This document shows positions 18,250 to 23,227 of a stretch of DNA of 64,000 bases, one piece after another (the first letter of the stretch is position 1; the number at the start of each line of letters is the position of its first letter). Origin of the DNA: Octopus sinensis (Eukaryota); the NCBI RefSeq assembly GCF_006345805.1, contig NC_043013.1, forward strand, positions 51,584,001 to 51,648,000. The letters run 5' to 3'. The notes under the pieces were generated by a model. That model saw only the letters and a program-made list of their open reading frames with translations. It had not been told where the DNA came from and did not search any database. The position numbers and the translations under genes were made by a program.

Positions 18250-18565
18250 ACTTGTGGATAACATAGACCCCTTCTCGAGCCATGCGTGGCTCACAAGGGC
18301 CGGTTTTACGGTTTCCTTGGTGTATAGGTTCCCCAGCTAGACGGGACGCCGATCCGACGCAGGTGAGCTGCAAGATGCAGGAAGAAAGAGTGAGAGAAAG
18401 TTGTGGCGCAAGGCTAATCAGACGTTCGCCATTACCTCCTGCCGGAGCCGCGTGGAGCTTAGACGTTTCGCTCATAAACATACACATCACCCGGTCGGAG
18501 ATTCGAACCCACGACCCCTTGACCATGAGTCCGACGCTCTAACCACTAGGCCATGTACTTCCACT
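18250..18565 (-). mobile_element. tRNA-derived SINE family C
   Basis: A-box TGGCCTAGTGG, B-box GGTTCGAATC, then GAGCGAAACGTCTAAGCTCCACG domain shared with 54810-55192. Confidence 0.8.
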
Positions 18566-19290
18566 ATCGACCCCACTGTTTCACTGGTGCTTATTTTAGT
18601 GACCACAAAATGATGAAAGGCAAAGTCAAACCTCGATGGAATTTAAACTCCGAACGTGGAGACAGACGAAATACTACTTAGCCCTTTGTCCGGCGTGCTA
18701 ACGATTCATTTCTACTCTAAGCACAAGGCCCGAAATTTTGGGGGAGGTGGGCAGTCGATTAGTTCGACCCCAGTACGCAACTGGTACTTAATTTATCGAC
18801 CCCAAAAGGATGAAAGGCAAAGTCAACCTCGGCGGAATTTGAACTCAGAACGTAGCGGCAGACGAAATACCTATTTCTTTACTATCCACAAGGGGCTAAA
18901 CACAGAGAGGACAAGCAAGGACAGAAAAATGGATTAAGTTGATTATATCGACCCCAGTGCCTAACTGGTATTTATTTAATCGACCCTGAAAGGATGAAAG
19001 GCAAAGTCAACCTCGGCGGAATTTGAACTCAGAACCTAACAGCAGACGAAATACCGCTCCGCATTCCACCTGGTGTACCATCGATTCTGCCAGCTCGCCA
19101 GTTCGATATCGGTTTCAAATTTTGGTACAAGGCCAGAAATTGTAAGGAAGGATGCAAATCGATTTCATTGACTTCTGTGCTCATGTGATACTTATTTTAT
19201 CGACTTCGGCAGCATTTGAGTTTAGGACGCAAAGTCGGAAGAAATGCCGTACTTTTTCCGGCGCGGTAACGATTCTGCCAGCTCGCAGTC
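18565..19290 (-). mobile_element. Cluster of SINE family B copies and fragments
   Basis: Repeated GGATGAAAGGCAAAGTCAACCTCGGCGGAATTTGAACTCAGAAC. Confidence 0.8.
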
Positions 19291-19936: not shown

Positions 19937-20347
19937 ACGTTCTCACTTCCCGAGCGTTAGACTAATACATCTGTTTGTAGTTTACACATCCATCTTCGTC
20001 CTTTGTTTTGCTTATTTTTTGTAAATTCCAAATATATACATATATGTATATGTGTGTGTGTGTGTGTGTATTATATATATATAATATATATACATTATAT
20101 TATGCATGTATATATATATATATATATATACATTTGATATATATATGGAGTATATATATATATGCATACGTGTGTTATAAACAAACATAGTATATATATA
20201 ATATATTATATAGATATATATATATATCACAATCAAGGAACGGCCATAATAGGCCATTCACCCACTAGAAATAACAGCTAAAGCTTCCACCGCCAAAATA
20301 ACATTAATTCCGTAAACCAGGAGAAAATTAAAAAACATTACCCTGTA

Positions 20348-20450
20348 ATTTCTTATACGATGCACCGTTTCATCTACTGTTTAATGGTAAAACTACCTGA
20401 TTAAATAAATCAAGCCAATCTTCCATAGGCCCTTAGATTCGTCAGTAAAT
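20348..20450 (-). ncRNA. Type I hammerhead ribozyme copy 1 (stem I shortened by a 3-nt deletion)
   Basis: Reverse complement has intact CTGACGA, GAAA and GTA core. Confidence 0.7.
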
Positions 20451-20828
20451 AGCCAGATCGGAACAGATATTTTCACGAGGCATTTCTGTCCCTGCCTCGG
20501 CAATATCTGACCTAAAATTTTCAAATCATCGCACTCGCGCCAAATTTATCGGCAGCAAATAAATATAAGCCGCCGATTCCATTACGGAATTAACCAGAAA
20601 ATTCATAATTAATCAATATAGGGTGGCAAAAAATTTTGTAGAATTTTTTTGCCACCAGCGGCCTAGTGGGAAAAAATTAAATAGTCATAGACCATTTTTA
20701 AGTTCAACATCACAATCAAGGAACGGCCATAATAGGCCATTCACCCACTAGAAATAACAGCTAAAGCTTCAACCGCAAAATAACATTAATCCGTAAACCA
20801 GGAGAAAATTAAAAACATTTACCCTGTA

Positions 20829-20934
20829 ATTCTTATACGATGCACCGTTTCATCTACTGTTTAATGGTAAACTAACCTGATTAAATTAAATCAAGCCAAT
20901 CTTCCATAGGCCCTTAGATTCGTCAGTAAGAAAT
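20829..20934 (-). ncRNA. Type I hammerhead ribozyme copy 2
   Basis: Reverse complement TTCTTA-CTGACGA-ATCTA...TAGAT-GAAA-cggtgcatcg-TA-TAAGAA. Confidence 0.85.
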
Positions 20935-21118
20935 AGCCAGATCGGAACAGATATTTCAAATTATGAATTTTCTGGTTAATTCCGTAATGGAATCGGCGGC
21001 TTATATTTATTTGCTGCCGATAAATTTGGCGCGAGTGCGATGATTTGAAAATTTTAGGTCAGATATTGCCGAGGCAGGGACAGAAATGCCTCGTGAAAAT
21101 ATCTGTTCCGACTTGGCT

Positions 21119-21225
21119 ATTTCTTACTGACGAATCTAAGGGCCTATGGAAGATTGGCTTGATTTAATTTAATCAGGTTAGTTTACCATTAAACAGTAGA
21201 TGAAACGGTGCATCGTATAAGAAAT
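21119..21225 (+). ncRNA. Type I hammerhead ribozyme copy 3, extended stem II
   Basis: Stem I ATTTCTTA/TAAGAAAT (8 bp); CTGACGA at 21127-21133; stem II ATCTA...TAGAT (21134-21201); GAAA at 21202-21205; near-palindromic stem III ACGGTGCATCGT; GUA cleavage after 21217. Confidence 0.88.
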
Positions 21226-21442
21226 TACAGGGTAAATGTTTTTTAATTTTCTCCTGGTTTACGGAATTAATGTTATTTTGCGGTTGAAGCTTTAGCTGTT
21301 ATTTCTAGTGGGTGAATGGCCTATTATGGCCGTTCCTTGATTGTGATGTTGAACTTAAAAATGGTCTATGACTATTTAATTTTTTCCCACTAGGCCGCTG
21401 GTGGCAAAAAAATTCTACAAAATTTTTGCCACCCTATATTGA

Positions 21443-21476
<34 letters not shown>

Positions 21477-21479
<3 letters not shown>

Positions 21480-21810
21480 GCGCATGGTTTGAATTTTGGG
21501 TTCACAATCATAAGGTAGTATGTTCGATTCCCGGATCGGGCTGTGCGTTGTGTTCTTGAGCAAGACACTTTATTTCACGTTGCTCCAGTTCACTCATCTG
21601 TAGAAATGAGTTGCGACGTTACAGGTACCAAGCTGTATCGGCCCCTTTGCCTTTCCCTTGAGCAACGCAATGGTGTGAAGAGGGGAGGCCGATATATATA
21701 CGCAGACTGCTGGTCCTACAAAAATAAACCGTGACCGGACTTGAACCCTGGAGGAGAAACTTTTAGGAGCAATCCCATAGCCATTCATAACTGAAAGGCT
21801 GGAGGATGTC
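21477..21810 (+). mobile_element. SINE family D (Meta-domain-like)
   Basis: B-box GTTCGATTCCC, then GTTGTGTTCTTGAGCAAGACACTTTATTTCACGTTGCTCCAG. Confidence 0.75.
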
Positions 21811-22508: not shown

Positions 22509-23057
22509 ATATATACTTTTATATAGTACATTATTTTCATTTTGTGATAGCCGAAAGTATTTGTCTATTGTATGTGTATGATCTTTTTCTTTCTCTACTG
22601 TGCTATTATTTCATCACGTTACGTTCATCTAATACTCGAAATGCCTTTTCTGTTATTTATTTATTTGTAGATGTACAATTATTTGGGTCTTGATGTATAG
22701 TTGAAAGGTGTTCGCCTATTGTATGTGTATAATTCTTGCTTTCTTGTTCTTGTTTTCGTTCTTGTATACATTTATTTCCTTTCCCCAGAAGCTTAATGTT
22801 CTGGCGCTTGCAGGCTTTGAGCGGTCTCAGGAGCAAAAAACGTGAAACTGCTATGTCTTTCCGGAGGAAATCGGCTGCGAATGGTCTGTCTATCTTATTT
22901 TTATCCAGTTTCACGTTTGTTATGTTAACGTCTATTTTTTCGTATGTTGTTTTTTCGTTGGATTTACGCTTGTTGTGTTCCCTTCTGTCCTGCTCTTGAT
23001 ATAATATAGGGAGAATTCACAAAAAAAAGACGTAGACAGGTGGTGTAGACAACAAAC

Positions 23058-23095
<38 letters not shown>

Positions 23096-23193
23096 GTTTG
23101 TTGTCTACACCACCTGTCCTACTCTTGATATATATATAATATAGGGAGAATTCACAAAAAAAAAGACGAAGACAGGTGGTGTAGACAACAAAC

Positions 23194-23227
<34 letters not shown>

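Follow-up and report, generated by a model that had tools for sequence, protein, structure and literature searches.

Tandem hammerhead repeats in animal genomes have been described as non-LTR retrozymes accompanied by abundant circles, and the discussion of that work put forward a model in which a Penelope-like element (PLE) supplies the enzyme that copies such circles into tandem cDNA (PMC7229834). A 2026 preprint argues that animal retrozymes are non-autonomous PLE derivatives and states that evidence on the retrozyme life cycle is limited; among its frog retrozyme families, 21 of the 22 matched elements were PLEs, and one of nine predicted retrozyme dimers was cleaved while the other eight stayed uncleaved (10.64898/2026.07.22.740005). 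PLE insertions are recognized by partial tandems that are truncated, by an inverted copy next to them, by a tail confined to one end and by (TA)n targets (PMC8557442, PMC3846280). The tail has been traced to two internal start sites of reverse transcription, the purified enzyme cutting and extending both strands, and for the same anole PLE hammerhead cleavage was dispensable in vitro, with unprocessed RNA serving as the main template (PMC11167929). From a squid genome, 235 Rfam hammerheads have merely been listed (PMC6962438).

The window considered here is a stretch of 64,000 nucleotides from the genome of Octopus sinensis (contig NC_043013.1, positions 51,584,001 to 51,648,000), and the locus within it (Table 1) is almost certainly one insertion of a non-autonomous PLE-type retrozyme. 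The order A-B-C-A / B'-A'-C' between TA tracts, which had been proposed from the letters of the sequence, was upheld by self-BLAST: 20226-20472 and 20709-20956 form a repeat pair of 94% identity, while 20959-21347 is an inverted repeat of 20226-20610 (97%) and 21097-21447 of 20608-20956 (98%). In unit coordinates, where q1-488 corresponds to 20960-21447 of the window, a minus-strand arm composed of q138-488 and q1-388 stands head to head with a plus-strand arm of q1-488. The three hammerhead cores of the original prediction were recovered as CTGACGA...GAAA...GTA starting at 21127 on the plus strand and at 20926 and 20445 on the minus strand, with predicted cleavage nucleotides 21217, 20836 and 20356, of which the two on the minus strand lie 480 nt apart, as had been claimed. 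A unit of about 480 nt describes the spacing of the window copy and does not describe the family, whose period is 487 nt (median of 139 spacings, range 473-501); the shorter spacing in the window is due to indels in the leftmost copy. That copy carries several small indels resembling long-read error, among them the loss of 3 nt from stem I, which leaves hammerhead copy 1 with 4 pairs in this stem instead of the usual 6-7. The RNA released by members of the family would accordingly measure about 487 nt, and the pair of sites in the window is a slightly damaged instance.

Table 1. Features of the locus (positions in the 64,000-nt window; cleavage sites and hammerheads are predicted)
Feature	Position	Strand	Remarks
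(TA)n-type tract, left half of insertion target	20072-20225		TA tract extends to 20227
Minus-strand arm, 1.5 units	20226..20956	-	5'-truncated at 20956; 3' end 20226 is the fixed 'short' end, q388
Type I hammerhead copy 1	20349..20452	-	core from 20445, predicted cut 20356/20355
Predicted monomer between two cleavage sites	20356..20835	-	480 nt here, 487 typical
Type I hammerhead copy 2	20829..20933	-	core from 20926, predicted cut 20836/20835
Inner head-to-head junction of the two 5'-truncated arms	20956..20960		q138 and q1
Plus-strand arm, one full unit	20960..21447	+	3' end 21447 is the fixed 'long' end, q488
Type I hammerhead copy 3	21120..21224	+	CTGACGA 21127-21133, GAAA 21202-21205, predicted cut 21217/21218
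68-nt stem II with long inner hairpin	21134..21201	+	
Hairpin 12 nt before the short 3' end (21347)	21314..21335	+	
100-nt 'tail' between short and long 3' ends	21348..21447	+	
Hairpin 14 nt before the long 3' end	21400..21433	+	sister family: same place and spacing
(TA)n tract, right half of insertion target	21448..21476		TA tract from 21446

The unit had also been described as structured and non-coding, and both descriptions hold: the 480-nt piece folds with z = -5.3 (0 of 100 shuffles equally stable), and the longest stop-free stretch in a natural 5-unit array is 60 amino acids. Its GC content is 36% (0.363) and it has no tRNA gene, in keeping with animal non-LTR retrozymes, which are free of LTR, PBS and tRNA parts. 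Target-site duplications of these retrozymes exceed 4 bp when present; at the unit both flanks consist of (TA)n, masking any duplication. The stretch is present in 19 sequencing runs from 7 studies with 3 organism labels, 14 of these runs being only presumed to be RNA. Among contigs from eight runs, the cleavage site is spanned by some, and 21217 is the last position of one and the first of another; assembly branching can explain these contig ends, a junction between tandem units looks the same as that of a circle, and contig depths do not rank expression.

Other repeats were noted in the window. Very abundant SINE-like repeats, in the form of tandem copies and one fragment, lie beside the locus (18565-19230 and 21490-21660), and a repeat of 133-169 nt, with inverted arms around (TA)n and in tandem at 26228, occupies 22988-23226 and 26228-26901 and resembles a miniature inverted or PLE-derived element. 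Farther away, frames at 515-1345 and 1957-2454 (minus strand) resemble by eye the remnants of Tc1/mariner transposases, a (TATG)n tract extends over 4.2 kb (30609-34858), and a frameshifted LINE-like remnant with gag-knuckle-like and reverse-transcriptase-like stretches was recognized by eye at 61064-63453 (plus strand).

A type I hammerhead is predicted in each unit and would be expected to self-cleave. In copy 3, stem I has 7 bp, stem II has 5 bp and the 12 nt of stem III are fully self-complementary; two copies of stem III pair at -19.5 kcal/mol compared with -1.2 for a single one, and in animal type I hammerheads such a self-paired arrangement favours dimeric cleavage (PMC4209133). Stem II spans 67-68 nt, a feature absent from the original prediction and far longer than in canonical animal hammerheads. 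Rfam does not recognize the motif, with 0 matches over the whole window at the gathering score and, at E <= 10, 17 weak unrelated matches over the locus, none of them a hammerhead; this marks a variant hammerhead and not a missing motif. All 12 core bases are kept in 219 of the 232 units covering the motif, and the free core position 7 varies (C in 30, T in 25). Taken alone, core conservation within the family does not reach significance because the family is too young, and the stem I pair that is C-G instead of T-A at 10 of 79 loci reflects one inherited event. The ribozyme may be weak, given the poor first pair of stem II (A-T in only 38 of 82 loci, against T.T in 29, A.C in 11 and A.A in 4) and the U at position 3 in a sister family; the lowest-energy fold predicted for the hammerhead region is inactive, the active fold lying 2.1 kcal/mol higher. 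At one locus (L008), the same change of the GAAA core occurs on both arms, and a core-damaged monomer may have been mobilised there, as dimeric cleavage would allow.

The supposition that the unit is multicopy was confirmed by exact-pattern counts of 277, 1,576 and 2,305 in the 2.72 Gb of genome searched (controls 0); the highest count, from a 19-nt core pattern, is a floor, the second core pattern (1,576) only partly overlapping it. A DNA search returned 141 matches within the 40 scored of 959 candidates. The first set of loci comprised the best DNA matches, the first pattern matches on two contigs and eight hand-picked long arrays, amounting to 82 distinct loci once 18 duplicate fetches of the same arrays had been removed from 100; a second set of 20 loci was chosen from the matches listed for the 2,305-match pattern, so that both sets hold 102. 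The truncated locus L097 was left out of the end counts (101 complete loci), L203 out of the pooled variant spectrum, and L090, L203, L211 and arms under 4 units out of the neighbour test, and sites within 3 columns of a gap were excluded. Units differ from the majority of their own array by a median of 0.3% (32 arrays), and two arrays, L087 (2,615 sites) and L079 (985 sites), contain no internal difference. Because of this low divergence and these two arrays, the family can be called young, as had been supposed, and may be active now.

The anatomy of the insertions follows a near-strict rule. The arms are directed outward, their 3' ends are fixed and their points of 5' truncation scattered, and 133 of the 139 arm 3' ends (81 loci) adjoin a TA tract. 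Long ends lie at q484-488 and short ends at q382-393, in either case 12-14 nt past a hairpin; the hairpins were taken from a sigma-70 promoter scan, of which only the coordinates were used, the sigma-70 model being unsuited to an animal. A two-armed head-to-head structure was found in 73 of the 101 complete loci, and 69 of these 73 pair one long with one short end (55/58 in the first set, 14/15 in the second), which has P = 3e-21 if each arm chose its end independently. No two-armed locus is long/long (0/73), and the four exceptions each have one atypical end, L068 (375/388) being a possible eroded short/short pair. Up to 9 units stand in a row, the longest arm measuring 4,437 nt. The PLE-like mode of insertion suggested by the window, with truncated partial tandems, an adjacent inverted copy, a one-sided tail and (TA)n targets, is thus a property of the family, and the architecture common to the 69 loci excludes an assembly chimera or a single-copy rearrangement. 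As a separate observation, six loci that seem single-armed (L036, L061, L091, L204, L222 and L031) possess minute arms on the opposite side, 8-25 nt long and derived from the long end, which are in places present twice, like abortive or telomerase-style re-priming.

The inner junctions bear on how the second arm arises. Their position varies between loci. Among 55 loci, 32 show an overlap of 1 nt or more, 3 are joined bluntly and 20 have extra bases, and microhomology is often 1-9 nt. Near mirror symmetry occurs in 11 of the 55 against 3.5 expected, a surplus that would suit the proposal made for rotifer Penelope (PMC3846280), in which the first product folds back to prime its own inverted copy and the second target end does not act as primer; fold-back would also make both arms share variants. 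As the general origin of the inverted arm this is nonetheless improbable, since at 18 of the 55 loci, including that of the window, part of the shorter arm has no counterpart in the longer, which means that neither arm can be a copy of the other. Moreover, the longer arm may be either one (31 versus 24), and both outer ends are fixed and adjoin TA. Fold-back may account for a minority of junctions, and it or hairpin-guided joining may act in some loci.

The variants within arrays bear on the template. At its origin each insertion consisted of identical copies of a single monomer, and its units have since diverged one by one. In the first set, units differ by 0.0067 substitutions per site within the same arm (337 pairs) and by 0.0067 between opposite arms (214), compared with 0.0354 between loci (38,240); the corresponding values in the second set are 0.0106, 0.0071 and 0.0366. 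Neighbours are no more alike than other units, with 0.0067, 0.0070, 0.0068 and 0.0075 at unit separations of 1 to 4+. At sites covered by at least 3 units, 289 variants are present in all units, 16 in all but one, 253 in a single unit and 15 at intermediate frequency, and the pooled figures for at least 4 units are 297, 18, 213 and 28, respectively. Both arms carry 10 of the 11 testable locus-private variants, and a haplotype is common to just 2 of 561 array pairs. Since the arrays are uniform across both arms, lack a neighbour effect and carry near-private haplotypes, each must have been built at once from one monomer. In only 36 of 67 loci do units lie closer to one another than to the most similar of the other loci, which is expected if independent changes add up and is not a clean separation.

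This pattern makes it very improbable that inserted monomers were later amplified in place as a satellite through unequal crossing-over, slippage or gene conversion, an origin that has been suggested for vertebrate retrozymes (10.64898/2026.07.22.740005) and that would suit the internal duplications of L090 and L211 and the 15-28 variants of intermediate frequency. Under such amplification adjacent units should be closer than distant ones and arms more alike within than between, neither of which is observed; besides, the variant spectrum is U-shaped and the arrays keep exact paired ends.

A cut linear monomer was also considered as the template and judged unlikely. The predicted cleavage site is crossed by 125 of 139 arms, arm starts do not pile up near it (5 versus 3.1 expected), and the junction is not error-prone, with 228 of 247 units exact across the site and an indel rate of 0.0085 there against 0.0124 overall.

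Alternatively, the template of the same PLE-type parasite might be a linear multimer that is transcribed from a donor array and never cut, the hammerhead being slow or a passenger. The in vitro dominance of unprocessed RNA as substrate of the anole PLE (PMC11167929) and the weak-looking first pair of stem II speak for such a template, and a brand-new uniform donor would yield uniform daughters. We consider it unlikely, because an uncut multimer cannot spread a new variant array-wide, yet there are 63 distinct array-wide variants and 559 of the 561 array pairs differ; likewise, L087 and L079 are uniform inside, yet lie 0.8% and 0.5%, respectively, from their nearest sampled loci. Singletons that recur across loci also speak for a linear template, their excess being modest (36 versus 25.9 +/- 4.0 simulated, P = 0.009). 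These singletons, however, join unrelated haplotypes (median distance 0.024 versus 0.025 for the background) and are mostly out of phase, often at homopolymer edges, which points to hotspots or assembly error.

The monomer bottleneck would be preserved if an RNA circle (or an excised DNA circle) were copied into multimers by host RNA polymerase and then inserted by ordinary target priming. Rolling transcription of this kind would likewise give uniform arrays that read through the cleavage site, so that the variant data fit it and rolling reverse transcription of the circle alike, and RNA-to-RNA replication has been reported for plant retrozymes (PMC9695139). It is unlikely in our estimate, as it requires an extra activity for which nothing in the data calls; its symmetric, viroid-like form is excluded, the antisense strand being devoid of a hammerhead core (0 in a 5-unit array).

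The genome contains candidate sources of the enzyme. Intact frames with reverse transcriptase and GIY-YIG domains were found in two PLE families, P1 (781 aa) and P2 (775 aa), both of which end in (TA)n, the same target as the unit. A CxxxxCxxC motif precedes the nuclease in both, as in Neptune and Nematis elements (PMC8557442), and this motif, taken alone, suggests that they are Neptune-like. Copies of P1 are 99% identical. P2 (L138) bears a minimal hammerhead, has two 3' ends 26 nt apart and combines long and short arms in 3/3 two-armed loci. Neither family, both drawn from the GIY-YIG search (150 of 5,029 candidates scored), is similar to the unit in sequence. No pLTR similar to the unit was detected by BLAST in 42 GIY-YIG loci or by nhmmer in 77 PLE-related loci, barring separate arms of the unit or sister family. 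A shared-motif pattern devised for the partner was dropped, as it matched again only the unit and sister families.

As side observations, P1 (L131-L135, L139-L142) is young and has an upstream ORF of 479 aa and a pLTR with a candidate hammerhead core (possible U3-A8), and three more unrelated hammerhead motifs were seen in PLE flanks (L131:1584, L134:1851, L138:6521), one of them having a stem II of 57 nt. Repeats of many families seem to bear hammerheads in this genome.

These searches also address the concern that the unit might be only the pLTR of a coding PLE. Head-to-head truncated hammerhead pLTRs are common in animals (PMC4209133), one locus (L084) joins the unit to PLE coding sequence, and the indels of the leftmost window copy are of a kind typical of long-read error. 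Such a reading, or one that makes the arrangement an assembly chimera, has next to no probability: what lies upstream of a unit is another unit, up to 9 in a row, no fetched PLE locus has a unit-like pLTR, and insertions of this architecture, each with its own inner junction, are seen on many chromosomes. Because L084 is the sole direct contact with PLE coding sequence in 102 loci, the unit does not constitute the terminus of a coding element; together with the lack of an ORF, this agrees with the non-autonomous character ascribed to it at the outset. PLE-derived matches at 12 other loci lie 199-840 nt away, across TA runs, and the 2.7-kb gap within array L203 is not PLE coding sequence. The L084 structure (L084:1-2366 / L168:7030-8501) is flanked by TA, with the 3' part of P2 as its left arm, a unit array as its right arm and no TA between, and it obeys the long and short rule. 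A template switch between P2 RNA and the unit was entertained for it and not retained, a later deletion being equally likely as the two parts differ in age (the P2 piece is 1.3% diverged with two deletions, the array 0.34%).

An older sister family was found beside locus L030 (copies L143-L167, e.g., L144:640-1210 and L149:1372-1757; 1,468 search candidates), with about 90% identity among its copies. It aligns over the whole unit with a score of 259, against a shuffled maximum of 152, and is roughly two-thirds identical to it. Stems I, II and III are kept with different base pairs, so that the predicted hammerhead helices covary between the two families; the pairs were tabulated by script, MAFFT having misaligned the 3' core of the hammerhead, and the P1 row of that table, being out of register, was left aside. 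The sister hammerhead has a 42-nt stem II along with the U at position 3 mentioned above. Its two 3' ends lie about 90 nt apart, and about ten two-armed loci were long and short, one (L156) being long/long; these ends were read by eye, the reference containing TA flank and being unsuited to automatic end-calling. More distant relatives with head-to-head arms were seen at L135:6975-7630 and L198:3098-3526, the former running straight into the 5' end of a full-length P1.

We propose the following cycle. An array would be transcribed on the hammerhead strand, and neighbouring hammerheads, paired through their self-complementary stem III, would cut out a monomer that a host ligase closes into a circle, by analogy with other retrozymes. 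A PLE protein with a GIY-YIG nuclease, probably Neptune-like, would then cut both strands of a (TA)n tract, which is the target at the loci examined. Priming would take place at the long site from one DNA end and at the short site, which is 100 nt upstream, from the other, giving the paired ends observed. Both products would be copied from a single shared monomer, over anything between part of a turn and nine turns; the origin of both arms from one monomer is established by the variants, and the template would be circular. The two 5'-truncated products are finally joined head to head, often at microhomology of 1-9 nt. The cycle agrees with the circle-copying model of PMC7229834, which was advanced there without evidence of this sort, and with the two start sites demonstrated in PMC11167929. 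Rolling-circle reverse transcription best explains the arrays because of their one-monomer uniformity and the read-through of the cleavage site, and we assign a probability of roughly 0.6 to the full mechanism in which a circular template is copied round and round by a PLE enzyme. The more specific proposal, that the family is a genome-wide fossil record of a dimeric PLE-type enzyme priming both (TA)n ends on one RNA circle, one end per fixed site and for up to nine turns, has in our judgement an even chance. If true, it would provide direct genomic evidence for the proposed retrozyme cycle and a single account of why PLE insertions have a tail, an inverted head-to-head arm and tandems.

This family offers countable evidence on how retrozymes return to the genome, in arrays of one monomer whose two arms derive from the same sequence. 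The head-to-head inversion of PLEs with a one-sided tail has been attributed to self-priming (PMC3846280) or to two start sites (PMC11167929), and a young and abundant family makes the near-strict pairing of long and short ends countable. Additionally, it supplies a 487-nt substrate alongside intact candidate enzymes and a hammerhead form with a 68-nt stem II that is missed by Rfam. In our literature search, outside which Repbase, supplements and most subscription papers lay, there was no account of the unit family, no count of paired long and short arms across a family and no use of within-array uniformity to infer a template.

Compared with the animal non-LTR retrozymes described in PMC7229834 and 10.64898/2026.07.22.740005, the unit is alike in being a non-coding tandem with 36% GC in dispersed arrays, with one type I hammerhead per unit, a palindromic stem III and autonomous PLEs in the same genome; this likeness is drawn from sequence, cleavage and circles being predicted. 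Its 487 nt are above the 150-450 of the former source and inside the 51-972 of the latter. It differs in its 68-nt stem II, in an often unpaired first stem II position and in head-to-head arms with two fixed, paired 3' ends; the word 'inverted' has 0 occurrences in the main text of PMC7229834. No match of the unit to the pLTR of a coding PLE was found among the PLE loci compared, whereas 24 of 57 frog families were matched according to the preprint text (10.64898/2026.07.22.740005).

With Neptune/Poseidon-type PLEs, as portrayed in PMC8557442, PMC11167929 and PMC3846280, the unit shares 5' truncation, partial tandems, an adjacent inverted copy, a one-end tail, two start sites, a hammerhead upstream of the 3' ends and (TA)n targets. 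Unlike them, it has no ORF, a tail of 100 nt instead of 30-40 and up to 9 identical units per arm; moreover, the PLE in vitro used both start sites alike on both strands (PMC11167929), whereas 69 of 73 insertions of the unit use each once. The minimal hammerheads of PLE pseudo-LTRs, as presented in PMC4209133, are likewise of type I, with a palindromic stem III suggesting dimeric activity and with opposite-strand pairs 100-700 bp apart. The unit departs from them in its full 7-bp stem I, 4-bp stem III and very long stem II, and in being a self-contained tandem and not the end of a coding element. The element therefore belongs to a described class, to which it adds a very long stem II, a 100-nt tail and near-strict paired ends, and the surprise lies in its mechanistic footprint and not in the kind of element.
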